Positions 1 to 12,215 of a stretch of DNA of 64,000 nt are shown here, piece by piece. The translations under genes and the position numbers were made by a program. Source of the DNA: a virus (Duplodnaviria > Caudoviricetes); IMG/VR virus record IMGVR_UViG_3300037467_001267, positions 1 through 64,000 of that record, one strand, 5' to 3'. The notes beneath the pieces were generated by a model. It had not been told where the DNA came from and did not search any database. It saw only the letters and a program-made list of their open reading frames with translations. Every line of letters begins with the position of its first letter. The stretch's first letter is position 1.

Positions 1-1
1 T

Positions 2-118
2 AACGAGTACTGCTACTGCCGCGTCGTGGGCAACTGCGGGAAGCTGCTCGTGATGCACAAGCTCCCGCCCGGCACGGCCAAAGAAATTTCCCGCCGCGTG
101 GAAGAGCGGCGGAAGTAG
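2..118 (+). CDS. 3' end of a hypothetical protein truncated by the window edge
   Basis: Open frame NEYCYCRVVGNCGKLLVMHKLPPG...ERRK ending TAG 116-118; same strand as all neighbours. Confidence 0.4.
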   Translation, partial: NEYCYCRVVGNCGKLLVMHKLPPGTAKEISRRVEERRK

Positions 119-220
119 TATCCCGATGTTTCGTGCCGCGGAGAGTAATGAACGGCTTTGATCCGAGAAACGCGGACAATCTAGGGATTCAGGTGCCCAT
201 GCCGCTTACCATGGGATGGA

Positions 221-362
221 AGGCACGTAACTTCAGCTGGTAGAAGTGACCACCGTGGATCAGGCAACACCTCTCGGGGCGGCACCCCGAGAGCCTGGTC
301 GAGCCGAAAGGCTAACACGAAGTCCGAGTGGTGATACGCGGGTTCGACCCCCGCCGTGCCTC
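221..362 (+). ncRNA. tRNA-like RNA with a ~67-nt structured insertion in the anticodon arm
   Basis: Acceptor AGGCACG(221-227)/CGTGCCT(355-361); D-arm ACTTC-AGCTGGTA-GAAGT; stem ACCAC(249-253)/GTGGT(328-332); variable loop GATAC; T-arm GCGGG-TTCGACC-CCCGC; 74 nt instead of 7 between the anticodon-stem strands; no encoded CCA. Confidence 0.8.
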
Positions 363-364
363 TT

Positions 365-478
365 ATGGTGTTCATAGCATATATCTTTGCGGTGGTAGCC
401 GGATTAGGGTCTATGACGGCACTCGTAATATACGGCCATCCTTGGTTTGCCCTTCTGGCGTTCGTGTTTTGTTGTAGC
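365..478 (+). CDS. Possible 37-aa hydrophobic membrane peptide
   Basis: ATG...TAG reading MVFIAYIFAVVAGLGSMTALVIYGHPWFALLAFVFLL; below the ORF-track cutoff; AT-rich. Confidence 0.35.
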
Positions 479-491
479 TTACAGGTCAACC

Positions 492-713
492 GTGAACGTA
501 ATACTCGTGCTGAGCACGAAGAATAATCATGCGGCCGTCGAGGAGCTGCCTGAAGCCTCGCTGGACCAGGGACGGGTGCGAAGGATCGCACGCGGTGACG
601 CTGCTGCGATAAAGTTCCTCGACGGCCGCTACTGGTATCTGGCCTGGGATGGCGAGCGGATGATGTGGTTCCCCGTTAATGGGCTCGGAGAGCCCCGAAG
701 GGTCGAGCGGTGA
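492..713 (+). CDS. Hypothetical protein
   Basis: GTG start inside ORF 447..713; stop overlaps next start (GTGA). Confidence 0.45.
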   Translation: MNVILVLSTKNNHAAVEELPEASLDQGRVRRIARGDAAAIKFLDGRYWYLAWDGERMMWFPVNGLGEPRRVER

Positions 714-952
714 TTCAGAAACATCAACTAAGAGAGCGTGTGGTGCGCAAGCTGCAAGACCGTCTGGTGATGCTCGAAATGCGCATCGACAACGCGATCG
801 TGAACGGCACCATCAAGGGCGAGAAGCACGCCTGGGTGGACTTCGACGACATCCCCATCGACCCCGAGCTGGTCGAGGGCCTGGCGGCGAGGTACGGGGC
901 GAACGGATGGGCCTGTAAGGTCGAGAACTCTAGCATTCAGGTGACGTTGTGA
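710..952 (+). CDS. Hypothetical protein
   Basis: 80-aa ORF, 4-nt overlaps with both neighbours, genome-typical GC3 codon usage. Confidence 0.6.
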   Translation: MIQKHQLRERVVRKLQDRLVMLEMRIDNAIVNGTIKGEKHAWVDFDDIPIDPELVEGLAARYGANGWACKVENSSIQVTL

Positions 953-1959
953 GCAAAGCATACCGCCAGGACTCCCCGAACACGATCAAGGTCGAGTTGA
1001 CCGAGGGCTGTACGCTCTCCTGCTCGTTCTGCGGCATCAACGGGATTCGAACCAAGCCGGGTGGCTTTAAGTTCCTGTCGCTGGAGACGGCCCAGCGAAT
1101 CGGGGAGCTGTTAGCCGCGGAGGTTCGCGAGCGTGCCTGGAATCCCCGCATCGAGATGGCCATGCGGGGCGAGCCGACGATGAACCCGAATCGCGGGCCG
1201 ATCGTCCACGCCCTCCGCACGGCCAACCCCAAGGGCCACATCCAGATGACGAGCAACGGGGCCGGGCTCCTGAAGGGCGGCGACCCGTACGCCGCAGTCC
1301 AGGATCTGTTCGACGCCGGGGTGAACGTGCTGATCCTCGACAACTACGACGGCATCCAGTCCGTCAACCGCATCCTCTCCAAGCTCCCTTCCGACTGGGT
1401 GCGGCACTACCCGCAAGACATCTCCGCGAACCCGTACAAGCGGCGGAAGCATGACGAGCACGAGGTGGTCGTGCTCCCCGACATCTCTAAGACCGACAAA
1501 GGGGTCCATAACAAGCACGAGCTGTGCAACCATGGTGGAGCAGCAGGCCCGAAAGACTACTCGAAAGCCGACAAGATTTGCGCGAAGCCGTTCCGGGAAC
1601 TGGTCATTCGTCACGACGGGCGGATACCGGCTTGCTGCGACGCTTGGTTCGGCCAAATGTGCTTCGGCGACGTGCATACTGCGGCGTCGCTTGACGAGAT
1701 TTGGCAGGGCGAGCACCTCATGGCTCTCCGCCGCCATCTGTTTCACGGCCTACGCATCGTTGGCGACTGCGACGGTTGTAATTCTCGTTCTACTCGGGTG
1801 GGCCTACTCCCCAACAAGAACGGGACGGGCTGGATGCCCGAGCCGACAGCCAGCGACCTGGACATGCTAGTCTCGCTGGCGAAGCAGGGGCCCATGACTC
1901 AACCCGTCGAGCGTCCCTGGTACACGGGGCTGACGGTGAAAGGACAGAAGGTATCATGA
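949..1959 (+). CDS. Radical SAM enzyme with SPASM/Twitch-type C-terminal domain
   Basis: CxxxCxxC (GCTLSCSFC), GEP motif (MRGEPTMN), MTSNG, C-terminal CAKPF..DGRIPACC..GDV..CDGC. Confidence 0.9.
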   Translation: MSKAYRQDSPNTIKVELTEGCTLSCSFCGINGIRTKPGGFKFLSLETAQRIGELLAAEVRERAWNPRIEMAMRGEPTMNPNRGPIVHALRTANPKGHIQMTSNGAGLLKGGDPYAAVQDLFDAGVNVLILDNYDGIQSVNRILSKLPSDWVRHYPQDISANPYKRRKHDEHEVVVLPDISKTDKGVHNKHELCNHGGAAGPKDYSKADKICAKPFRELVIRHDGRIPACCDAWFGQMCFGDVHTAASLDEIWQGEHLMALRRHLFHGLRIVGDCDGCNSRSTRVGLLPNKNGTGWMPEPTASDLDMLVSLAKQGPMTQPVERPWYTGLTVKGQKVS

Positions 1960-2240
1960 AGAAAATCTACAAGTACATCCTTCCGCAAGACCAATGGGAT
2001 GAGGGCGTGTCCGTTACAATGCCCCGGGGTGCTCAGCTGCTCGACGCCCAGATCCAACCCCATAGCGGACTCTGTCTTTGGGCTCTGGTCGATCTGACCC
2101 AGCCTGATGATGTGCGAACGTTCCGGGTGTTTGGGACGGGGCAACCCCTCCCGACCTGGTTCACGGGGAGAGGCTACGTCGCGACGTTCCAAATGGAGAA
2201 GGGCTATTTGGTCTTCCATCTCTTTGAGGTGACTAAGTAA
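1956..2240 (+). CDS. Conserved small phage protein (IYKY..MP.GA..LWALVD..VFGTG..HLFE pattern)
   Basis: 94-aa ORF coupled to neighbours; pattern recognisable from other phage hypotheticals. Confidence 0.6.
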   Translation: MKKIYKYILPQDQWDEGVSVTMPRGAQLLDAQIQPHSGLCLWALVDLTQPDDVRTFRVFGTGQPLPTWFTGRGYVATFQMEKGYLVFHLFEVTK

Positions 2241-3196
2241 TGGCGCAGAACGCTTTCCAACACGGCTCCAGTTCGCTGGAAGACTTCTACGGCTGGATGA
2301 ACGAGAGACATGCTATCTTCCGGCGGCGGTTCGTCGAGAACAAGCCCAAGCCGTGGACGGAAGACAAGATCATGCTGGAGTACAAGTTCACGAACGTCTT
2401 CCGCGAACTCGACAAGGGCACCATCGCCCTCCGGAAGATGGAGAAGCAGACCGTCCAGGACTTCCTGGCCTGCGAAGACCCCGAGCGGGCGTTCCACCTC
2501 GCCAAGCAAATCGTCTTCAACACGTTCTGGTACCGCACGTTCAACTGGTACGAGCATGCGGAGAAGCTGGGCATGGTCTCGAACTACGAGGACATGCACG
2601 ACTACTTCATGGACCTACACCGGCGGGACAAAAGAATCTTCACCGGGGCCCATATGGTGCGGGGCGACAACGGCGAGATCAAGGTGTTCCCCTACCTGCG
2701 GCTGCTGAAGGAAGTCTGGGACACGCTCGACGGGCTGACGGCGAGCATCGTCAAGTTCGGCACGATGGAGAACGCCTACTGGAAGGTACGGGAGTACCAT
2801 CTGGTGGGCCCGTTCAACGCGTACGAGCTGGTCTGCGATTGGCGGTGGAACGTCCTGGAGGCGACCGACTCGCTGACGTGGGGGTCGATCGGGCCGGGAG
2901 CTGCCCGCGGACTCCAGCGACTCGGGCTCGACGTGAGCACGAAGAGCATGGTGGACCTGTGGCACGAGGCCCCCAACTACCTCGCCCCGCACGTCCTCTC
3001 CCACTTCCCGGCCAAGGTCTTCAAGAGCAAGGAATCCAATGCTACGAACCCTTATAGCGTTTATCCGCGGCAGGATTTCGAATGGCCTCCGTTTGAAATT
3101 CGTGAGATCGAGCACTCCCTGTGCGAGTTCGACAAGTACGAGCGATGCCGAGCAGGCGAGGGCCGACCAAGACAAAAGTTCGCCGGACACGGATAA
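2240..3196 (+). CDS. aGPT-Pplase1 / 5-hmdU DNA kinase (helical domain) family protein
   Basis: FYGWMNERHAIF..KPKPWTEDKIMLEYKFTNVFRELDKGT, FTGAHMV, GPFNAYELVCD, GPGAARGL, EIEHSLCEFDKYER are characteristic of this family. Confidence 0.82.
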   Translation: MAQNAFQHGSSSLEDFYGWMNERHAIFRRRFVENKPKPWTEDKIMLEYKFTNVFRELDKGTIALRKMEKQTVQDFLACEDPERAFHLAKQIVFNTFWYRTFNWYEHAEKLGMVSNYEDMHDYFMDLHRRDKRIFTGAHMVRGDNGEIKVFPYLRLLKEVWDTLDGLTASIVKFGTMENAYWKVREYHLVGPFNAYELVCDWRWNVLEATDSLTWGSIGPGAARGLQRLGLDVSTKSMVDLWHEAPNYLAPHVLSHFPAKVFKSKESNATNPYSVYPRQDFEWPPFEIREIEHSLCEFDKYERCRAGEGRPRQKFAGHG

Positions 3197-3404
3197 CCCG
3201 CTCGCGTTCTACTCCACCGTCGAGCTGTTCGACGAAATCGGGCGGCGGAGTTCCACGCTCGTGTGTGCGTACAAGCCGCTGGTCTGCGAGCCCGGGTTCA
3301 CCTGGGCCCAGGTCTGGCGGGGACAAGACTTCGATTCTGCCCTGGGCCTGTCGCGTCGGCTCTGGCATAGCTTGGACCAGGACGCGAGAAGGAGCGCAAA
3401 GTGA
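3039..3404 (+). CDS. Small hypothetical protein (true start uncertain, probably near 3180)
   Basis: Fills the gap between kinase and methyltransferase; LAFYSTVELFDEIGRR pattern; stop overlaps next start. Confidence 0.4.
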   Translation: MLRTLIAFIRGRISNGLRLKFVRSSTPCASSTSTSDAEQARADQDKSSPDTDNPLAFYSTVELFDEIGRRSSTLVCAYKPLVCEPGFTWAQVWRGQDFDSALGLSRRLWHSLDQDARRSAK

Positions 3405-4072
3405 TTCAGTCAGACTACCGGGGCATCCGGTATACTTGGTCGGGAGACGACCGACGCAATGGTGCTTTGTACGGCGTGCTAACCGTACCGCTGTTTGGCT
3501 ACCAGAACGAGGGTGTGCTCCAGGACGACATCGAGGAGCGCATCAACTGGCTGGCCATCCACGAGAAGCCCAAGCGGGAGTTGCTCGAACACCGCATGGG
3601 GCTGGCCCACCGGGAGTGGATCAAGGCCGTCGCGGGCACGGACAAGCGGGTGCTGGAGTGGGGCTGCGGGGCGAGCACCCTCTGGTACCGGGAGAACGGG
3701 ATCAAGGTCACGACCGTCGAGCACGACCCGGTGTGGGCCGCGATCATCGGCGGGGTCATGCTCTACCCGATGCCTGCCTGGCCGACCAGAGCCCGGGACG
3801 CCGAGGGCACGCCCGTCGTCACCGCACCGGAATTCGACTACGTGCGATGCCCCGGACTCGGCAGGTTCGACATCATCCTGGTGGACGGGATTCTCCGCAA
3901 CGCCTGCCTGCGGTACGCACCCCGGCTACTCACCAACCACGGGATTGTCCTCCTCCACGACGCCCAGCGGGACTGGTACGAGCTGGGGCGCAAGGACTAC
4001 ACGACCGTGAGGGAGTTGCCGGAGTGCGAGGACTACAAGGGACCAACCCTCTGGGCGGGTAGACCGCTGTGA
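3401..4072 (+). CDS. Class I SAM-dependent methyltransferase-like protein (glycan O-methyltransferase-like)
   Basis: Motif I RVLEWGCGAST, VTTVEHDPVW, FDIILVDG..R..C, IVLLHDAQR. Confidence 0.72.
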   Translation: MIQSDYRGIRYTWSGDDRRNGALYGVLTVPLFGYQNEGVLQDDIEERINWLAIHEKPKRELLEHRMGLAHREWIKAVAGTDKRVLEWGCGASTLWYRENGIKVTTVEHDPVWAAIIGGVMLYPMPAWPTRARDAEGTPVVTAPEFDYVRCPGLGRFDIILVDGILRNACLRYAPRLLTNHGIVLLHDAQRDWYELGRKDYTTVRELPECEDYKGPTLWAGRPL

Positions 4073-4320
4073 GTTATCTCAACCAGCTAATCCGGCGACA
4101 GGCTCCGCTCACCCGGTGTCAATGCGCGGTGCTGGCGGTTCTCACGACGGAGTTCGCAAGCGTGGACGATGTCTGGCGACGCAAGCCCGTCTATGCCGAG
4201 AACCGGGCTGGGCGAATTGGCCCGTCGCCTACGGAACTATTTCGCAAGTCTTACGGAGTCTCGTCCAGCAAGGCTTCGCGGAAACTACGGGCGGAAAGCG
4301 TCCCAGATATAGGAGTGTAG
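4069..4320 (+). CDS. Hypothetical protein
   Basis: 83-aa ORF overlapping upstream stop; atypical composition. Confidence 0.3.
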   Translation: MSYLNQLIRRQAPLTRCQCAVLAVLTTEFASVDDVWRRKPVYAENRAGRIGPSPTELFRKSYGVSSSKASRKLRAESVPDIGV

Positions 4321-4324
4321 TAGC

Positions 4325-4969
4325 ATGAGAACCTGGCGCATAGACGACGTGTCGGTCAACACCGACGTTCCCGCTCTCATCGAGCTGATCGAGGCATGTC
4401 TCAGCGAGCCCGACGACAGGGTGCTGCTGGCGATCAACCCGGTCGTGATCGGCAAAGACCGCCAACGTCCGTTCCCGGCCGCGATGAAGCCGCTCTCCGT
4501 CGTGTCGGAGTATTTCCGGGCGACGGCCTGTGGGGTGCCGCCCATCCCCGCCACGCCCCGATACGCGGGGCGGATCATGACCGCCGGGCACGGCATGATC
4601 CACGTCGACCACCGGCTCCTCACCTACGAGCAGCAGGAGCTTTCGATCCTCATGTCCTGCTCGCTGGCGAGGGCGGACAGCTTCGTTCCGCCATTCAACT
4701 ACTGGAACGGGAACACGCAAGCGATCTGCGTCAAGCACGGCATCCAACTCATCAAGTACGAGGACGGTTGGCGCCACGTCCTGCACAACGACTACAACCC
4801 GCACCACCTGACCTGGTATCTCCATCCCTGGGACATCACGCCGGGCGGGTTGCGGGCCTGGCGACAGAGTAACGCACCTCTTTGTGATTTGTGCGGTAAA
4901 CCCTACCGAGGCAACCACGTCGATCCTGTATCCGGCAAGCCCCGCCACCCCGGGTGCGTTCCGTTTTAG
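4325..4969 (+). CDS. Polysaccharide deacetylase-like (CE4/NodB-fold) protein
   Basis: RIDD (motif 1), GHGMIH (HxxxH metal motif), FVPPFN (motif 3); C-terminal CDLC..H..H..C tail. Confidence 0.7.
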   Translation: MRTWRIDDVSVNTDVPALIELIEACLSEPDDRVLLAINPVVIGKDRQRPFPAAMKPLSVVSEYFRATACGVPPIPATPRYAGRIMTAGHGMIHVDHRLLTYEQQELSILMSCSLARADSFVPPFNYWNGNTQAICVKHGIQLIKYEDGWRHVLHNDYNPHHLTWYLHPWDITPGGLRAWRQSNAPLCDLCGKPYRGNHVDPVSGKPRHPGCVPF

Positions 4970-4978
4970 GAGATAGCT

Positions 4979-5977
4979 ATGCGTATCATCGTCTGGACAC
5001 GCGGGCGGCTCAACCTCCAGCGAACCCGCAAGAACTTCCATCTGGACTCGCCCGAGATTCTCTCTCGCTGGGACGTGACGTACGTACTCTGTAACTCGGA
5101 GGTTAGGGAGTACGAAGCGAAGTATCCCAACAGTAAGACGATTAACGTTCCCGACGAATGGAACGCCAGCGAGATTCGGCACTGGTTGACGTACAACTAC
5201 GTGGAGCCCGACCCATTCCACGTCCTGATGGACGACGACCTGTATTTCCTCCGCCGCGTTGCGCCGACGGATATTCGTCAGCGGTCGAGCCCGGGAGTCC
5301 AGGACGCCATGGACATGTTCGAGCGCATCGAGAAATACTTGAACGAGGGTTACGCCCATGGCGGCATCTCCATCCGAGCGGGAAACAACCGCATCCCCGG
5401 CGTCTACGCCGAGAACACCCGCGTCATGGACATCCACTTCTACGACGCCCGCACCTTCGTCGAGGAGCGGATCAACCTGGCGGAGACGCCTGTTATGGGA
5501 GATTTCCACGCTACACTATCTCTCCTGGAACTCGGCTACCCGAACGTGCTTGACGCGGAGTTCATGTCTGGGCAACAGGACCATACGCCCGGCGGATGCT
5601 CTCGGTACCGCACTGTTGAGATGTTGCGCGAGACAGCGGAGAAGATGGCTCGCATCCACGCCCCGTTCGTGAAGGTGCGGTACAAGACGGTGAAGAACTC
5701 GCTGGCCCCGCAGGCGACTCTGCCCGACGTGACGGTGTACTGGAAGAAGAGCTTCGGCACGAAAGCCCACTTGCGGAAGTACAACCCGGCGTGCTTGCTC
5801 TGTGGTAAGCTTGCGGAGGAGCATATCGACGCGGACATCGAGAACTACGATAAGGATGGCGTATGTATAAATACACGCCAAAAAGTCTATGACCAACGAA
5901 CAGATTCAGCGGCTCAAGTTTCTAGCGGACAAGGTGCGGGGGTTGGAAGCTCGGAGGGAGGAGCTGGCGAGGGCTAA
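4979..5977 (+). CDS. GT-A glycosyltransferase of the TET/JBP-associated (TAGT/GREB1-like) DNA-base glycosyltransferase type
   Basis: RHW..FHVLMDDDLYF (DxD), DFHATLSLLELGYPN, TPGGCSRYRT, VTVYWKK; preceded by TAGGAGATAG RBS. Confidence 0.75.
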   Translation: MRIIVWTRGRLNLQRTRKNFHLDSPEILSRWDVTYVLCNSEVREYEAKYPNSKTINVPDEWNASEIRHWLTYNYVEPDPFHVLMDDDLYFLRRVAPTDIRQRSSPGVQDAMDMFERIEKYLNEGYAHGGISIRAGNNRIPGVYAENTRVMDIHFYDARTFVEERINLAETPVMGDFHATLSLLELGYPNVLDAEFMSGQQDHTPGGCSRYRTVEMLRETAEKMARIHAPFVKVRYKTVKNSLAPQATLPDVTVYWKKSFGTKAHLRKYNPACLLCGKLAEEHIDADIENYDKDGVCINTRQKVYDQRTDSAAQVSSGQGAGVGSSEGGAGEG

Positions 5978-6179
5978 CGATAACCTCGCCGGGAGCACCG
6001 ACGTTAGCTTTTGGAACACGGGCAACTCGGAGAAATGCGTCAAGCTCGACAGCAAGAAACCGGCGGACGCAGAACTGTTCCGCACGATCGTGTCGGGTGC
6101 TCGGGAAGCAATCCGGGAAGAGATTCGCAAGATCAACGAAGAGCTGGTGAACCTGGACTACGTGGAGAAAGGAACATGA
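5889..6179 (+). CDS. Hypothetical coiled-coil protein
   Basis: 96-aa ORF overlapping the glycosyltransferase 3' end. Confidence 0.55.
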   Translation: MTNEQIQRLKFLADKVRGLEARREELARANDNLAGSTDVSFWNTGNSEKCVKLDSKKPADAELFRTIVSGAREAIREEIRKINEELVNLDYVEKGT

Positions 6180-6379
6180 TCTACCGCATCGCCCTCTGGT
6201 TGGGGTGCTGTATGATGGTGACGGGCGGGGTTTACTTCGCCGTCATCCTCCAGGCCTGGTGCGTCGATCGAATCGTGAAGTACCTCGACGCCTTCTGGAT
6301 AATTGGGGACTACGTGATCCATCGCCGTGAATTTAAGCAGTGGCTTAACAGGAGCAAAGATGAAGATTCGAAAGCGTGA
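6176..6379 (+). CDS. Small membrane protein
   Basis: ATG 6176 after AAAGGA; MIYRIALWLGCCMMVTGGVYFAVILQAWCV hydrophobic segment. Confidence 0.55.
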   Translation: MIYRIALWLGCCMMVTGGVYFAVILQAWCVDRIVKYLDAFWIIGDYVIHRREFKQWLNRSKDEDSKA

Positions 6380-8966
6380 CGGGAAGTTACAGGACTGGGA
6401 CATGACGAAGGTCAGGGTGGCGGTGGCCAAAGCCGTCCGCGGTGCCTACGATCCGCCCGAGAAGTACGTCTTCAACCTCGACGCCATCGTAGATTCGGCG
6501 GAGCGTGCGGTGGCGAAGGTCGTGCGGGACAAGCAAGACCGGGGCTTCGTGGACATCGAGGAGGTCCAGGACGCGGTGGAGGACGGTCTCATGGAAGCCG
6601 GGCACACGAAGGTGGCCCGCTCCTACATCCTGTACCGCCGCGACCGGGCGATGGTGCGCAAGCGGATGGAGATGAAGCCGCCCGCGAACATGATCGAGGA
6701 TTACATCCACCCGGCCAAGTACGCCAAGTGGTTGCCGGAGTTGAAGCGGCGGGAGACGTACCTGGAAACCGTGTTGCGGTCGCAGGCCATGCATGTCCGC
6801 AAGTTCCCGCAGTACAAACTGGAAATTGAAGGGGTGTTTGAGCGAGTGCTGGACAAGCACGTCCTGCCGAGCATGCGCTCGATGCAGTTCGGCGGGGAGA
6901 AAGCCGAGGAGCATAACGCAGCGATCTACAACTGTAGTTTCTCGCTGTGTGACCGGCCGAGGTTCTTTGCCGAAGCGTTCTACCTGCTCCTGTGCGGCTG
7001 CGGCGTGGGTGCGAGTATCCAGAAGCAGCACGTCGCGAAGCTGCCGCCGATCCGCCGGATGGACACGAGCAAGGTCAGGCACTTCACGATCGTCGATACA
7101 ATCGTCGGCTGGGCGGACGCGGTGGACGCGATGTTCGACGCGGCGATGGAGGGGTACTGGATCGAGTATGACTATTCTCAGGTTCGCCCTGAAGGCACTG
7201 TTCTTGGAAAGTCTGGCGGCCGTGCTCCTGGGCATGTGCCTTTGCGTAAGTGCCTGGAGACGCTTCGCACTATGTTGGAAGCGGCGGCGGGGCGGCACCT
7301 CAGGCCGATCGAATGCGGGGACGCGATCTGCCATATCGCCCTCGCCGTGCTGTCTGGAGGCATTCGAAGATCGTCGCTTATTCTGATCTTCTCGCCCGAC
7401 GACGAGGAGATGCTCACGGCCAAGGCCGAGGGCAACTTCAGGTACCCGTCAGGCAAAGACCCCGGCCTGAACGCCCACAGGCAGATGAGTAACAACTCCG
7501 CCTGCTGTGTGCGGAACAAGACCACCCGGGAGCAGTTCGAACGGCTGTTCGAACTGTCCGTGGCGAACTGGGGTGACCCGGGCATCTACTGGACGGACGA
7601 CGAAGACTACGGCACGAACCCATGCGGCGAGATCGGGCTGAACCCAACGATCACGAACGGTCAACTCATGGAGCTGGTTCAGGCTGGTGTGATCCATGGA
7701 GTGGGTGCTGAGTACTGGGACGGTTCGGGACTGGGTGAGATCAACGAGCGTCTATCTGGCTGGTCGTTCTGTAACCTGTGCGAGACGAACGCGGCACGGG
7801 TGAAGACCAAGGCGGAGTTCTTGGCGGCGGTTAGGGCTGCCGCGGCGATCGGCACGCTCCAGGCCAGCTACACGAGTTTCCCGTACCTGGGTGCCATCAC
7901 CGAAGCCATCGCACGGCGGGAAGCCCTCCTGGGCGTGGGCATCACCGGCATCATGGACAACCCCGACTTGGTCCTGGATCCTGAGCTGCTTCAAGAAGCG
8001 GCGGCGGAAGCCGTGGCGACGAACATGGAGTGGGCTCTGAAGCTTGGGATCCGCCCGGCAGCGAGGGTCACGACGGTCAAGCCCAGCGGTACGGCTTCGC
8101 TGGAACTGGGCTGCGTGGGCAGCGGGATCCATCCGCACCACGCACGGCGATACTTCAGAAGAATTACCGCCAACCCGCTGGAGCCGGTGGCGAACTACCT
8201 GAAGATGCTAAATCCGCATCTGTTCCAGGAGAAGCCGAACGGGGACTGGTGTATTACCTTCCCCGTCGCCGCACCCGACACGGCGACTAAGTTCGTTAAA
8301 AATCAGTCCGCCAGCGAGTTTCTGGACAACGTGTTCCTGGTGTACGAGAACTGGGTCAAGCCGGGGACGGCACGGCCCGAGAGCAGCCCGGGTCTGACCC
8401 ATAACGTTAGTGCTACCGTCACGGCATGGGACCACGAGTTCCCGGAAGTCCGCTCCAGACTCTGGGAGGAGCGTCACCGCTACAACGCCATCTCGTTCGC
8501 CCACGCCGGCTCGGACAAGGGCATCCCGTACATGCCGCGGGAGGAAGTCACGACGGACGCCGACTGGGCACTCTGGGAGGAGCTGATCACGAAGTACACG
8601 CCGGTAGACTACACGCAGTTCGTGGAAGAGGAGGACATGACGGCGGCGAACGCCGAAGCCGCGTGTGCCGGCGGGGCCTGTGACGTGATCGAGGGCGCCA
8701 TCCTGAAGCGTGCCCCGTACCCGGGTGCGGTCATGCTGTTCGAGGGGCCGTGGCAGGACTGGGACGAAGAATCCCACCCCCACTGGATCGTGGTGGAGGC
8801 ACCCGAGCCTGATAGCAACTACTTCTACGACGGTAAGTCATGGTGGTGGCTGCCGCCGAGCACGAACCACGACACGGTCAAAGAAACGGTGCTGGGCCAC
8901 GAGTACGTCTGGGCCAAGGCGGTGCGGGGCAAGACGTTACACGAGTTGAACATGGAGTGGCTCTAA
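6360..8966 (+). CDS. nrdJ: Class II (adenosylcobalamin-dependent) ribonucleotide reductase with N-terminal ATP cone
   Basis: ATP cone (IRKRDGKLQDWD), VLPSMRSMQFGG, YNCSF, TNPCGEI, FCNL, TTVKPSGTAS, C-terminal ACAGGAC; AGGAG RBS at 6350. Confidence 0.92.
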   Translation: MKIRKRDGKLQDWDMTKVRVAVAKAVRGAYDPPEKYVFNLDAIVDSAERAVAKVVRDKQDRGFVDIEEVQDAVEDGLMEAGHTKVARSYILYRRDRAMVRKRMEMKPPANMIEDYIHPAKYAKWLPELKRRETYLETVLRSQAMHVRKFPQYKLEIEGVFERVLDKHVLPSMRSMQFGGEKAEEHNAAIYNCSFSLCDRPRFFAEAFYLLLCGCGVGASIQKQHVAKLPPIRRMDTSKVRHFTIVDTIVGWADAVDAMFDAAMEGYWIEYDYSQVRPEGTVLGKSGGRAPGHVPLRKCLETLRTMLEAAAGRHLRPIECGDAICHIALAVLSGGIRRSSLILIFSPDDEEMLTAKAEGNFRYPSGKDPGLNAHRQMSNNSACCVRNKTTREQFERLFELSVANWGDPGIYWTDDEDYGTNPCGEIGLNPTITNGQLMELVQAGVIHGVGAEYWDGSGLGEINERLSGWSFCNLCETNAARVKTKAEFLAAVRAAAAIGTLQASYTSFPYLGAITEAIARREALLGVGITGIMDNPDLVLDPELLQEAAAEAVATNMEWALKLGIRPAARVTTVKPSGTASLELGCVGSGIHPHHARRYFRRITANPLEPVANYLKMLNPHLFQEKPNGDWCITFPVAAPDTATKFVKNQSASEFLDNVFLVYENWVKPGTARPESSPGLTHNVSATVTAWDHEFPEVRSRLWEERHRYNAISFAHAGSDKGIPYMPREEVTTDADWALWEELITKYTPVDYTQFVEEEDMTAANAEAACAGGACDVIEGAILKRAPYPGAVMLFEGPWQDWDEESHPHWIVVEAPEPDSNYFYDGKSWWWLPPSTNHDTVKETVLGHEYVWAKAVRGKTLHELNMEWL

Positions 8967-8974
8967 GTGTAGGT

Positions 8975-9073
8975 TCGGCTGTACGTCTCGGAATGGGCGG
9001 TGCAACTCCGCCCGATGGCCAGAGCGGCGGGCAGAGCGTCCCGTGGTTGTCGGTTCGAATCCGACCGGCCGAA
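8975..9073 (+). ncRNA. tRNA-like RNA with a hairpin inserted in the D-loop and an aberrant anticodon loop
   Basis: Acceptor TCGGCTG(8975-81)/CGGCCGA(9066-72); T-arm GTCGG-TTCGAAT-CCGAC; D-stem CG(T)CTC/GAGCG enclosing GGGCGG-TGCAACT-CCGCCC; stem CGGG/CCCG with 8-nt loop; no CCA. Confidence 0.72.
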
Positions 9074-9075
9074 TT

Positions 9076-9327
9076 ATGCTACTAAGTGAGTGGGTTGCGA
9101 GAGCGGAAGGCGTGGTGGCTCGCCTGAAAGAGCTGCCGGGAGACATCGAGGTCATGAAGGTGCCGGGACGCATCGTCCTGGATTACGACGGCACGATCCT
9201 CGGGAAAATTAACTGCGGAGAAATGGAGCTGGTGATTTATGGCGATGAGACCGGTCAGGCTGGGGCTAGACGAGATGAATCTGTTCAACACCATCGCGGT
9301 GGAGACGGGGGCGAAGTGCAACCGTAA
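9076..9327 (+). CDS. Hypothetical protein
   Basis: ATG right after the tRNA-like element; overlaps next gene. Confidence 0.4.
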   Translation: MLLSEWVARAEGVVARLKELPGDIEVMKVPGRIVLDYDGTILGKINCGEMELVIYGDETGQAGARRDESVQHHRGGDGGEVQP

Positions 9328-10213
9328 GTGCGGGTTCTGCCCGGTGAGTCTGGGCGGGCGGGATGAAGATGAGTACATGGACCAGGGCACGTTCAACAAG
9401 ATCATAGCCGAACTGGTCTCGCTGAAGTACAAGGGGAGTTTCATCTTCCACCTCTACAACGAGCCCATGAAAGATAAGAGGCTCGTTGACCTGGTGCGTC
9501 AGGCCCGGGAGAACTTGCCCCGGGCGGGGTTGAGATTTAACACCAACGGCGACTACATCAAAGAGCCCTGGGACGTGGCGAAGTATTTTGACGCGGGCCT
9601 GAACCAGATGCTGATCAACGTCTACTCCAACGAGAAGCGGTACCAGCAGCTGGTGGAGATCGTGCGGCAGGTCAAGGTGGCCCACGAGGGTCTGCACTAC
9701 GACGCGGGAGACATGAAGCGTGCCGGGATGAGCGTAGAGGTGCTAAGAAAGTTCGGGTCGGAAGTGTACCAGCTGGGCGGCACCCAGAAGCTGCAGAACA
9801 GGAGCGGCCAGAACACGGATCCCAACCTGGCCGTGTTGGACGAGCCGCTGGAAAAGTACTGCGTGCGGCCGTTCAGGCATATTAACGTGAACTGGAAGGG
9901 CGACGTGGTCTTGTGTTGTAACGACTACTTCGGTCGTGTGACGATCGGGAACGTGCGTGAGCGGAGTTTGGTGGACTTGTGGAATGATCCGCTCCTGATG
10001 CTCTACCGCAAGAAGCTCCAGCGAGAGGATCGGAGAATGCCGCTGTGTGATAAGTGCGATTACGGCGGTGGGGTCATGCCGCACAGTACGCACCCCATTG
10101 CGTGGCCGGGTCGTGCGTGGGCGGAGGATTATCGTGACGTTGACGTCGAAAAGCTGCGGCACATAGCCAAAACGTGCGCGGAGTCGGCGTCCATGGGGCA
10201 GTTAGGGGAATAG
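9239..10213 (+). CDS. Second radical SAM enzyme with SPASM/Twitch-type domain
   Basis: CxxxCxxC (KCNRKCGFC), HLYNEP, FNTNG, YCVRPF..KGDVVLCCND..IGNV..SLVDLWN..CDKC. Confidence 0.9.
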   Translation: MAMRPVRLGLDEMNLFNTIAVETGAKCNRKCGFCPVSLGGRDEDEYMDQGTFNKIIAELVSLKYKGSFIFHLYNEPMKDKRLVDLVRQARENLPRAGLRFNTNGDYIKEPWDVAKYFDAGLNQMLINVYSNEKRYQQLVEIVRQVKVAHEGLHYDAGDMKRAGMSVEVLRKFGSEVYQLGGTQKLQNRSGQNTDPNLAVLDEPLEKYCVRPFRHINVNWKGDVVLCCNDYFGRVTIGNVRERSLVDLWNDPLLMLYRKKLQREDRRMPLCDKCDYGGGVMPHSTHPIAWPGRAWAEDYRDVDVEKLRHIAKTCAESASMGQLGE

Positions 10214-10228
10214 TTGGGCTTATTAGAG

Positions 10229-10300
10229 GCTTGCCTGCTGGTTTTCGCAGGGCGGGGTATATCCGGAGTAGGGTAGACCCCCGAAAACCAGCAGGCGGGC
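10229..10300. repeat. Long intergenic inverted repeat/hairpin
   Basis: GCTTGCCTGCTGGTTTTCG(10229-47) pairs with CGAAAACCAGCAGGCGGGC(10282-300); inner GGGGT/ACCCC stem. Confidence 0.7.
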
Positions 10301-10407
10301 GCAGGATTAAGCGGAATCGGGGTTGGGAGCGGTTTCGGAGGGGTCGAAAACGGGCGAAAGCCCGGGATGATCCTTACGAGACCCTAACTGCGGAATGGGA
10401 GCCTGGT

Positions 10408-10638
10408 ATGACGTTACGGATCGGACGGGTTGATGACGCGTATCGACCGGCTGTCGTGGAAGACGCGATGAAACTGCATCCGAATCTGGACGTGGTGCTG
10501 GGCCCCGAGTGGGCACGCCCGCTATGCGTGGGTGTGGTGTTCGTGCCGAGGGGGGCGGAGAAGTTTCTGGAATGGATTAAGGAAGCCCACGTGCGTGAAA
10601 CGTTGGGCACAGGCAAGGTAGACGAGATACGCATATGA
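10408..10638 (+). CDS. Hypothetical protein
   Basis: ATG 10408 after GGGAG; stop overlaps next start. Confidence 0.5.
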   Translation: MTLRIGRVDDAYRPAVVEDAMKLHPNLDVVLGPEWARPLCVGVVFVPRGAEKFLEWIKEAHVRETLGTGKVDEIRI

Positions 10639-11294
10639 GCAAAGTATTCTACGTGGCGGCGTCGGCAGCGAGACAGGGCGAAGCGAAGGCGATCGCTGAA
10701 CACTTGCGGGCTCGCGGTGCGAAGGTTAAAGCCCGCTGGCTAGAACAGGGTGATGTGTCGTACGGACGGCCGGGTGTGGAGGACGAACTGGGTACGTGTG
10801 CCCAGATGGACATGCACGACGTGATAAACTCTGACGAGGTAGTCTGCCTGTCCGGAGACGTCTATACTAAGGGTGGGCGGCATAGCGAAGTCGGTGCCGC
10901 GATAGCACTAGGAAAGAACGTGTGGCTGTTTGGTCCGAGAGAGCAAGTCTTCCACTACCACCCGTTAGTTACACAGGTGGAACGGCTGGACCAGATCGTC
11001 GTGAAGGATGTGGCCGAGAACTTTCGGACACGTAAACCCATGCGGGACGGGTTTATTGAGCAGCAAATTTACGAGCTGCGGAACAAGATCAAGTCTGTGA
11101 TGCTGAAACACGGCCCTGGCAAGTTCGTGTCGAGCCATGAGGTGCTCGGTCAAGTTACGGAGGAATATCACGAACTGATCGACGTAATTCGCAGAGACAA
11201 AGATAAAATTGGCCCGATTGCGGACGAACTGTTCGACATCGCGTTGGTGGCCGTGTTGGGTGTGGTGTCGATGCGTATGGGAGGTAATGACTGA
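10635..11294 (+). CDS. Nucleoside 2-deoxyribosyltransferase/N-glycosidase-like domain fused to a MazG-like helical domain
   Basis: KVFYVA..DMHDVINSDEVVCL..GGRHSEVGAAIALGK (NDT family), then HEVLGQVTEEYHEL..DELFDIALVA (MazG EExxE..E..D). Confidence 0.7.
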   Translation: MSKVFYVAASAARQGEAKAIAEHLRARGAKVKARWLEQGDVSYGRPGVEDELGTCAQMDMHDVINSDEVVCLSGDVYTKGGRHSEVGAAIALGKNVWLFGPREQVFHYHPLVTQVERLDQIVVKDVAENFRTRKPMRDGFIEQQIYELRNKIKSVMLKHGPGKFVSSHEVLGQVTEEYHELIDVIRRDKDKIGPIADELFDIALVAVLGVVSMRMGGND

Positions 11295-11584
11295 TGAGTA
11301 ACCCAATCGACGAAATCCTGAATGAGTTTCGTGAAGCACGAAAGCAGGGCCGCCAGAAGTATGGCGGTAGCGATCCTGTGGGACACGACCTCAACCACCG
11401 TCTCAGCGATTGGTTGAGGTTCGTGCGTGACCACCTCGACCGTGCGGGAGGGCCGGATGCTTTCGTGGCCCTGGACCAGCGGGAGCATCTCGTCAAGGCG
11501 GGAGGATTGCTACTCTCTGCGATCTGGGCTCTGGATGTGAACGCAGGACGCATCCCATTACCGGGAGCCGACACCCATGAGTAA
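11294..11584 (+). CDS. Hypothetical helical protein
   Basis: 96-aa ORF coupled to neighbours. Confidence 0.55.
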   Translation: MSNPIDEILNEFREARKQGRQKYGGSDPVGHDLNHRLSDWLRFVRDHLDRAGGPDAFVALDQREHLVKAGGLLLSAIWALDVNAGRIPLPGADTHE

Positions 11585-12215
11585 GTTTAACATGATGACT
11601 TTACCGGCGGCGTACGAGCTGTTGGGCTTGGACATGAAGATCAAGCTCACGCCCGAGGCCCTCAGCAAAGCATATAGAAAAGCCGCGTTGGCCAACCACC
11701 CGGACACGAAGTTCGGCGAGCTGGCGAAGCGGGAGGCCGCGGAGAAGATGGCTTCGATTAACGACGCCAAAGAGCTACTGGAGAAGCTGGTCAACCGGGC
11801 ACCGAGTTTCTCCGCCAACCCGTTCGGCACGGCGGTGCCTGTGGACGACCATCAGCTGGAAAGCAAGTTCCAGGGCGAGGTGATCGCCGCATGGGAGGCG
11901 ATCGGGGCACTAATTCTTAAAGTACACGGCAACGCGTTCCAGAAGGCCGGGTGGCCGGATTTGCAGGTCTACCACGTCAAGTGGACTGGGCACCTGGAGC
12001 TCAAAGTAAACGACAACAAACCGTCCGAGATCCAGCGAATCGTGATACGCGATCTGATGGCCCGCAAGACATGGGCGTTCGTCCTGCGGATGAAGGCGGG
12101 GATCGTGTACCTGGAGAACGACCGCGGGCAGGCGATCAGCCATATGGAGGGATGGAAGAAGATGACCGCCGTCCAGCGGGCTCATTCTATGCTAAGTCTA
12201 CTGGGAGTAAAGTAG
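11577..12215 (+). CDS. J-domain fused to VRR-NUC (PD-(D/E)xK) nuclease
   Basis: AYELLGL..KAYRKAALANHPD..MASINDAKELL (J-domain, HPD) then ESKFQ..AGWPDL..LELK..SEIQ (VRR-NUC). Confidence 0.78.
   Translation: MSKFNMMTLPAAYELLGLDMKIKLTPEALSKAYRKAALANHPDTKFGELAKREAAEKMASINDAKELLEKLVNRAPSFSANPFGTAVPVDDHQLESKFQGEVIAAWEAIGALILKVHGNAFQKAGWPDLQVYHVKWTGHLELKVNDNKPSEIQRIVIRDLMARKTWAFVLRMKAGIVYLENDRGQAISHMEGWKKMTAVQRAHSMLSLLGVK

Follow-up and report, generated by a model that had tools for sequence, protein, structure and literature searches.

Phage DNA glycosylation is known to begin with the hydroxymethylation of a pyrimidine, to which a sugar is then attached; this order holds for the α- and β-glucosyltransferases of T4 and for the TAGT-type GT-A enzymes (PMC8256090; bioRxiv 10.1101/2023.12.21.572611). 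The thymidine hypermodification clusters of phages M6, PaMx11, ViI, PhiW-14 and SP10 likewise contain a hydroxymethylase that is a thymidylate synthase (TS) homolog, together with a PF18723 gene (PMC5889632, PMC8989533). Here we describe a gene run at positions 949–5977 of a 64-kb stretch of viral DNA (the window), which forms the first part of a 72,095-bp IMG/VR virus record rated complete by CheckV. The locus follows the order of the glycosylating systems and shares with the thymidine clusters the PF18723 gene, the TS homolog and the genome neighborhood. However, it differs from these clusters in that no P-loop 5-hydroxymethyluracil DNA kinase (5-HMUDK), amino-acid:DNA transferase (ADDT) or pyridoxal phosphate (PLP)/FAD enzyme was found and a glycosyltransferase takes their place, and in that its TS homolog is of the cytosine type. 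It is a variant of phage DNA glycosylation and not a kinase-dependent phospho-sugar pathway. On balance, we favor a kinase-free DNA hypermodification in which a TAGT-type glycosyltransferase, with CE4-like, methyltransferase and BtrN-like steps, would place a tailored sugar on 5-hydroxymethylcytosine (5hmC). An earlier reading, made from the DNA letters without database searches (the sequence-only reading), had proposed that a tightly coupled run of five genes attaches a sugar or phospho-sugar to the base with the help of an hmU kinase-family enzyme. Its observation is confirmed in part and its interpretation supported in part; four of its five family calls stand, and the kinase call is misleading.

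The protein behind the kinase call matches PF18723 with an E value of 3.6e-42 (145.1 bits versus a cut-off of 25, residues 12–305 of 318), and the Pfam label of this family is '5-hmdU DNA kinase, helical domain'. It is a stand-alone copy of the helical domain and for this reason no kinase. Among phage proteins, M6 ORF055 (gp55) and PaMx11_50 (gp50) are its relatives, and it aligns with these two proteins and not with the P-loop kinases gp54 and gp49. The demonstrated 5hmdU kinases are the P-loop proteins M6 gp54 and PaMx11 gp49, which adjoin gp55 and gp50 (Table 1 in PMC8989533), and no Walker A motif is present in the window protein. The word 'kinase' in the Pfam name presumably derives from SP10, in which a PF18723-type domain is fused to a kinase (Table 3 in PMC5889632). 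M6 gp54 itself, a proven 5-hmdU DNA kinase (positions 4420–4983 of locus L139), is labeled 'terminase small subunit' in RefSeq/GenBank, and PHROG 800 is labeled likewise.

The search for a kinase was extended to the complete genome and to 79 related IMG/VR loci (individual loci are given L numbers). These loci were retrieved with an alignment of the window-type glycosyltransferase family, which was needed because an IMG/VR scan with the PF18723 protein as a single query returned no relatives, and their gene content was scored by tblastn with window proteins as queries. A tblastn search with PaMx11 gp49 gave nothing below E = 0.1 across the 72,095-bp genome, and a gp49-like kinase was found in none of the 79 loci. 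The family matched by gp49, phrog_800, touches just the Walker A/P-loop of one AAA_5 ATPase in the genome. The P-loop open reading frame (ORF) of the pool cassette described below was considered as a hidden 5-HMUDK and rejected, as its similarity to gp49 is confined to the P-loop and it resembles a deoxynucleoside monophosphate (dNMP) kinase. In line with the statement of the sequence-only reading that no aGPT-Pplase2 (ADDT) gene is recognizable in the window, a hidden Markov model search with PF18724 gave no match at E ≤ 0.01 in the whole record, a negative that is weak on its own because the same search matched none of 14 control genomes; with PaMx11 gp46 as a tblastn query, no ADDT of this type was found in any of the 79 loci. 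We therefore consider it highly improbable that the PF18723 protein acts as a 5-HMUDK that phosphorylates 5-hydroxymethyluracil (5hmU) in DNA and that a sugar then replaces or extends the phosphate, yielding a phospho-sugar base. The Pfam name and the SP10 fusion (PMC5889632) would fit such a route, but the shown kinases are the neighbors of the proteins that the window protein matches, its structural model is all-helical and similar to PUGT and helix-hairpin-helix (HhH) proteins, no gp49-like kinase was found in the genome or the related loci, and the TS homolog is of the deoxycytidine monophosphate (dCMP) type. With the kinase premise gone, the phospho-sugar proposal loses its basis.

The AlphaFold2 (AF2) model of the PF18723 protein (44 sequences, predicted local distance difference test score (pLDDT) of 90) had as its top VIA structural match PUGT (8z2m; Z = 10.4, root mean square deviation of 3.9 over 208 residues); the next matches were the queuine salvage enzyme QNG1 and HhH DNA glycosylases. 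For a helical protein, such a Z score is modest, and only VIA ranked PUGT first; Foldseek alone gave E = 0.66 and nothing below E = 0.3. PUGT is the PaMx11 gp46 amino-acid:DNA transferase, with a catalytic Cys247 (PMC11472151). Cys295 of the PF18723 protein is invariant and is part of the motif IREIEHSLCEFDKY; the corresponding stretch at the catalytic cysteine of PUGT, IQEVETILCKWKS, is similar. The protein is a paralog of the amino-acid:DNA transferases (AADTs), has their catalytic-cysteine motif and probably acts on a flipped-out 5-substituted pyrimidine. It could also be imagined as a group transferase whose cysteine activates the C5 methylene without phosphorylation and adds a nucleophile such as the free amine that de-N-acetylation leaves on a sugar, which would give an N- or C-linked product. 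The PUGT-like fold and the cysteine motif are compatible with this activity, and the deacetylase of the operon could unmask an amine. However, M6 gp55 is dispensable for glycinyl-thymidine formation in lysates and for group transfer in vitro (PMC8989533), a hydroxyl leaves poorly, and the deacetylase is missing from most loci with the conserved core, and we regard this activity as quite improbable. In the PF18723 tree, PaMx11 gp50 is the sister of PhiJL001 gp19, which comes from a kinase-free cluster, and M6 gp55 is the sister of a glycosyltransferase-linked protein; therefore, one protein type serves both the kinase/ADDT clusters and the glycosyltransferase clusters. The protein may thus have the same task in the two kinds of cluster, one that is performed on the hydroxymethyl pyrimidine itself.

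The glycosyltransferase exceeds the Pfam cut-off for TAGT (27.5 bits) and matches phrog_842 with an E value of 1.6e-28. Its residues D85, D86 and D87, a GT-A DxD-type motif, are invariant in 14 sequences, so its earlier designation as a TAGT-like DxD enzyme is upheld; a family profile search found no solved relative. Across the 79 glycosyltransferase loci, PF18723 is present in 61 and a TS homolog lies within 10 kb of the glycosyltransferase in 69; the genes are usually adjacent, and the association is not due to chance. The commonest gene order is PF18723, glycosyltransferase, TS homolog and HD-domain protein. The same core, made up of gp19, gp22 and gp24, is found without an ADDT in the cultured phage PhiJL001. 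In our literature search, no paper on the kinase-free core or its product was found. Pyle et al. already noted GT-A enzymes near TS homologs and additional sugar-modifying genes, and the PF18723 partner that is conserved here is not mentioned there (bioRxiv 10.1101/2023.12.21.572611). The glycosyltransferase ends in a cysteine-containing C-terminal tail of ∼60 residues. This tail (5780–5900) and that of the CE4-like protein (4880–4969) are both Cys-rich and open with CxLCGK (CLLCGK and CDLCGK among the two); they are missing in most homologs and may be small zinc-binding modules for contact with DNA or a partner.

The identity of the base is indicated by a pool cassette located just upstream of a family A DNA polymerase. 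Its TS homolog, the only one detected in the genome, contains the motifs LPCT (with the catalytic Cys) and RSNDIWLGLPYD, which places Asp at the position of ThyA Asn177, and its best PDB match is the CMP hydroxymethylase MilA (E = 1e-26). N177 governs substrate specificity, and D169N marks synthases of 5-hydroxycytosine (5hoC) (PMC13326640). Because of the Asp at the Asn177 position, the base is probably 5hmC and not 5hmU, which makes the hmU premise of the earlier proposal doubtful. Asp169 is kept (RSND), so the enzyme is by signature not a 5-hydroxy-dCMP (5hodCMP) synthase; an Asp is also found at the L143 position. The phages RB69 and DLP3, with glycosylated 5-hydroxycytosine, are similar in that a TS homolog sets the base and glycosyltransferases build the DNA glycan (PMC13326640), but the D169N that is diagnostic for them is absent in the window. 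Among 71 alignable TS homologs, the residue at ThyA position 177 is Asn in 63 (PaMx11 gp51, PhiJL001 gp24 and 61 metagenomic loci), Asp in six and Ala in two. The loci most closely related to this phage are the six of the Asp type, which make up a separate clade in the PF18723 tree with support of 100/99. The order of the pool genes (pyrophosphatase, hydroxymethylase, dNMP kinase and deaminase) is also similar to that of T4. The Asp at N177 and this T4-like order together make 5hmC fairly likely. The atlas neighbors (0.96) of the kinase-like protein in the cassette are viral thymidylate-kinase/deoxynucleoside kinase (dNK)-like clusters.

Two radical S-adenosylmethionine (SAM) enzymes, rSAM1 in the run and rSAM2 downstream of it, are candidates for tailoring of the sugar, and the Radical_SAM and SPASM matches of rSAM1 bear out its assignment in the sequence-only reading. 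A PDB search with the single rSAM1 sequence found nothing, and a family profile was needed, which matched BtrN (4m7t) with an E value of 6e-33 over two stretches that include the Cys-rich C-terminal auxiliary-cluster part; the next radical SAM enzyme in the same search followed at 1e-6. The invariant cysteines of rSAM1 are residues 21, 25 and 28 of the CxxxCxxC radical SAM motif and residues 211, 229, 230, 274 and 277. BtrN, the 2-deoxy-scyllo-inosamine dehydrogenase of butirosin biosynthesis, shares with the phage enzymes the radical SAM core, the auxiliary-cluster region and the conserved cysteines. It differs in length (270 residues versus 324–336 for the phage enzymes), and the phage enzymes are located in a DNA-modification operon. 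In the reaction of BtrN, an aminocyclitol is oxidized from the secondary alcohol to the ketone (PMC10337720), and the homology lends support to the earlier idea of a radically oxidized sugar. The radical SAM protein of M6, gp53, is in contrast described as spore-photoproduct-lyase-like (PMC8989533). Homologs of rSAM1 adjoin the glycosyltransferase in 17 of the 79 loci, with identities of 32–44%, mostly 36–41%. rSAM2 is 23% identical to rSAM1 and belongs to the same family, and its closest relative (40% identity, L086) is encoded immediately downstream of PF18723, with the glycosyltransferase two genes further on, so rSAM2 is likely part of the same pathway. It follows a ribonucleotide reductase downstream of the run; in the closest relatives, the same position after the ribonucleotide reductase is occupied by an N6/N4 DNA methylase (L126, 14730–16361).

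The CE4-like protein had no family match at E ≤ 0.1 in Pfam, NCBIfam or PHROG and no PDB sequence match. Its AF2 model (pLDDT of 90) was matched by Foldseek to the Streptomyces lividans CE4 enzyme (2cc0, E = 6.5e-5) and BA3943 (2e-4), with a template modeling (TM) score of ∼0.5, and many CE4 entries were among the best matches. Across 43 sequences, the motifs RIDD, HGxxH and PPFN do not vary, and they occur in the canonical order; residues D7, D8, H89, H93, H96, P122 and P123 are invariant, and H167 is nearly so. The protein resembles CE4/NodB deacetylases such as 2cc0 in its predicted fold and in the sequence order of its DD, HxxxH and PP(F/Y) motifs, and it differs from them by a short core of ∼180 residues, the TM score given above and the added Cys-rich tail. 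The earlier designation as a CE4-like deacetylase is therefore retained. A metagenome scan for this protein yielded distant relatives only. The methyltransferase can be assigned tentatively to class I from sub-threshold family matches and the GxGxG-type motif LEWGCGAST, in agreement with its earlier description as a SAM methyltransferase; its GTG start codon at 3401 is preceded by a strong Shine-Dalgarno sequence, and one homolog carries the JGI name SAM-dependent methyltransferase. A 27,368-bp contig encodes both a glycosyltransferase that is 69% identical and a methyltransferase that is 50% identical to the window proteins.

The methyltransferase and CE4-like genes are found between PF18723 and the glycosyltransferase, and in related loci this slot holds other sugar genes. 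In L126, these are a UDP-glucose dehydrogenase-like protein, an NAD epimerase/dehydratase and an FkbM methyltransferase, and in L093, an FkbM methyltransferase, a radical SAM enzyme and a GT61-like glycosyltransferase. Since the slot varies in its sugar genes and 17 loci have a BtrN-like gene next to the glycosyltransferase, the tailoring genes can be tied to the DNA pathway. The company that the CE4-like family keeps in other phage loci, where its neighbors are sugar genes, also favors a role in sugar tailoring. This agrees with the earlier view of the region as a base-modification locus with sugar-tailoring enzymes around a base glycosyltransferase. In the literature searched, a set of BtrN-like radical SAM enzyme, CE4-like deacetylase and methyltransferase has not been reported for any DNA glycan.

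A pathway with the following putative base, sugar, order of steps and products would accommodate the families, folds, motifs and gene associations that were observed. The pool cassette would supply (most likely) 5-hydroxymethyl-dCTP, from which phage DNA with 5hmC would be built. After replication, the glycosyltransferase would move a sugar, presumably an N-acetylhexosamine, from a host nucleotide sugar onto the hydroxymethyl group. The CE4-like enzyme would take off the acetyl group, the SAM methyltransferase would attach a methyl group, and one or both of the BtrN-like radical SAM enzymes would convert a CH-OH of the sugar to a ketone. The sugar could be tailored in this way once it is bound to DNA or, ahead of transfer, while it is still part of the donor, and the PF18723 protein would probably work on the flipped-out pyrimidine. 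A bolder version of this scheme, which we consider unlikely, envisages an aminoglycoside-like hexosamine on 5hmC that is de-N-acetylated, methylated and oxidized in the manner of BtrN, possibly on the polymer, with PF18723 as a new cysteine-dependent enzyme that acts on either hydroxymethyl pyrimidine without prior phosphorylation.

Several observations weigh against the proposed pathway. As regards the base, the window glycosyltransferase groups with that of L063, an Asn-type (hmU) locus; on the linear record, ∼52 kb lie between the pool cassette and the operon, a distance that would shrink to ∼14 kb with joined ends; and the deaminase-like protein could turn hydroxymethyl-dCMP (hm-dCMP) into hm-dUMP. 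By such a deamination, or if the TS homolog took dUMP despite its Asp, a thymine-derived base would result, namely a base-J-like tailored glycosyl-5hmU. A base of this kind is predicted for the Asn-type majority of loci, PhiJL001 included, PF18723 has so far been known from thymidine-hypermodifying phages only, and the deaminase-like gene lies just one gene past the TS homolog and overlaps the kinase-like ORF. However, T4 also pairs its dCMP hydroxymethylase with a dCMP deaminase. The Asp at N177 is an established cytosine determinant (PMC13326640), the match to MilA points in the same direction, and the Asp-type loci are set apart in a PF18723 clade of their own. We therefore judge a thymine-derived base to be somewhat unlikely, while giving it more weight than the other alternatives.

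The remaining contrary points concern the tailoring genes. Those for rSAM1, the methyltransferase and the CE4-like protein are absent from the closest relatives of the locus (L079, L094/L095, L126/L127 and L091), and for this reason they may belong to an insertion that has nothing to do with the pathway. Pfam gives no match for the CE4-like family, the methyltransferase scores 15 bits against a Methyltransf_24 cut-off of 26.3, and no nucleotide-sugar gene in the genome points to the identity of the sugar. Outside the glycosyltransferase loci, the CE4-like family occurs in 55 phage loci (L008–L062) with large sugar clusters (NAD epimerase/dehydratase, GT1/GT4 and GT10-like), none of which contains the TS homolog, PF18723 or the TAGT-type glycosyltransferase. 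Methyltransferase homologs adjoin the CE4-like genes in three of them (L053, L060 and L062), and an unannotated family of ∼185 residues is nearly always encoded beside the CE4-like genes of this set. These patterns would be expected if the core alone (TS homolog, glycosyltransferase and PF18723) made a simple glycosyl-hydroxymethyl pyrimidine and the cassette had a small metabolite or glycans of the virion or the host envelope as its target. However, the cassette genes occupy precise positions between and next to the PF18723 and glycosyltransferase genes, their stops and starts overlap, relatives fill the same slot with other sugar genes, and BtrN-like genes recur next to the glycosyltransferase, which leads us to regard the core-only explanation as unlikely.

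The coordinates of the genes are collected in the table below. The G+C content of the window is ∼62%, and because a simple longest-ORF caller is unreliable in such a GC-rich genome, gene bounds were set by G+C content at third codon positions (GC3) together with family matches. All genes examined are on the plus strand. The genes of the run are tightly packed, with stops and starts that overlap or nearly abut, except for one gap. The coordinates and packing of the five-gene run described in the sequence-only reading are thus confirmed, but that list omitted two ORFs (encoding the DUF7352 protein and an 83-residue protein) and the gap.

Table 1. Positions of the genes of the modification run, the downstream radical SAM gene and the pool cassette in the window
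Start	End	Strand	Feature	Basis
949	1959	+	BtrN-like twitch/SPASM radical SAM enzyme (rSAM1), 336 aa	Radical_SAM and SPASM matches
1956	2240	+	DUF7352 small protein, 94 aa	PF24043, E 5.5e-23
2240	3196	+	aGPT-Pplase clade 1 protein (PF18723, M6 gp55 type), AADT paralog, 318 aa	PF18723, E 3.6e-42
3197	3400	.	205-nt gap	Direct sequence reading
3401	4072	+	Probable class I SAM methyltransferase, 223 aa	Methyltransf_24, E 0.046; PDB 3cvo, E 0.004
4069	4320	+	83-aa ORF, coding status uncertain	GC3 lower than neighbors
4325	4969	+	CE4/NodB-like putative metal-dependent deacetylase, 214 aa	AF2 model fold and motifs
4979	5977	+	TAGT-type GT-A DNA base glycosyltransferase, 332 aa	PF20691, 34.3 bits
9239	10213	+	Second BtrN-like radical SAM enzyme (rSAM2), 324 aa	Radical_SAM and SPASM matches
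57035	57670	+	MazG-like NTP pyrophosphatase	PRA-PH, E 6.8e-12; phrog_671
57682	58677	+	TS homolog, predicted dCMP hydroxymethylase	Thymidylat_synt, E 5e-26
58674	59204	+	P-loop dNMP/thymidylate-kinase-like protein, start uncertain	Walker A; atlas neighbors at 0.96
59170	59700	+	dCMP deaminase-like protein	phrog_174, E 6.8e-7

The gap contains an open frame of ∼68 codons with moderately high GC3 and no clear start codon; candidate explanations are a small gene, an extension by frameshift and a regulatory spacer. The 83-residue ORF has no family match in Pfam, PHROG or NCBIfam. Homologs of the DUF7352 protein are present in unrelated phages of Vibrio, Flavobacterium and Arthrobacter and were not found by tblastn in the other glycosyltransferase loci, and the protein is probably not specific to the pathway. 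It was also considered as a counterpart of the PhiJL001 gp18-like domain that precedes PF18723 elsewhere; this was rejected, as the two proved unrelated on comparison. The latter is a conserved domain of ∼55 residues (…ENPKRPGS…GMTV…GFIKI) that follows a low-complexity charged stretch and, in at least 23 IMG/VR loci, immediately precedes PF18723; the PhiJL001 gp18 example lies at 6833–7288 of L005, and the domain is missing from the window. Downstream of rSAM2, positions 10635–11294 encode a weak nucleoside 2-deoxyribosyltransferase-like protein (E = 3.8e-4) that is kept in the relatives L079 and L091 and for which nucleotide hydrolysis in pool control is a possible role. MilB, the pathway partner of MilA, is a protein that we take to have a nucleoside 2-deoxyribosyltransferase-like fold. 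ARAGORN detected no tRNA or tmRNA genes at positions 1–12000 of the window.

For annotation, these results mean that a PF18723 match alone should not earn the name 'DNA kinase', and both this label and the terminase label of the true kinase can mislead automatic pipelines. Phage DNA hypermodifications govern how DNA is read by restriction enzymes, CRISPR nucleases and sequencing chemistries, and they are a source of useful enzymes. The kinase-free trio of TS homolog, TAGT-type glycosyltransferase and PF18723 is widespread and offers a clean setting for finding the role of the gp55-type protein. In this phage, the combination of the trio with a cytosine-type hydroxymethylase and aminoglycoside-type sugar enzymes predicts a kind of DNA sugar that has not yet been described.

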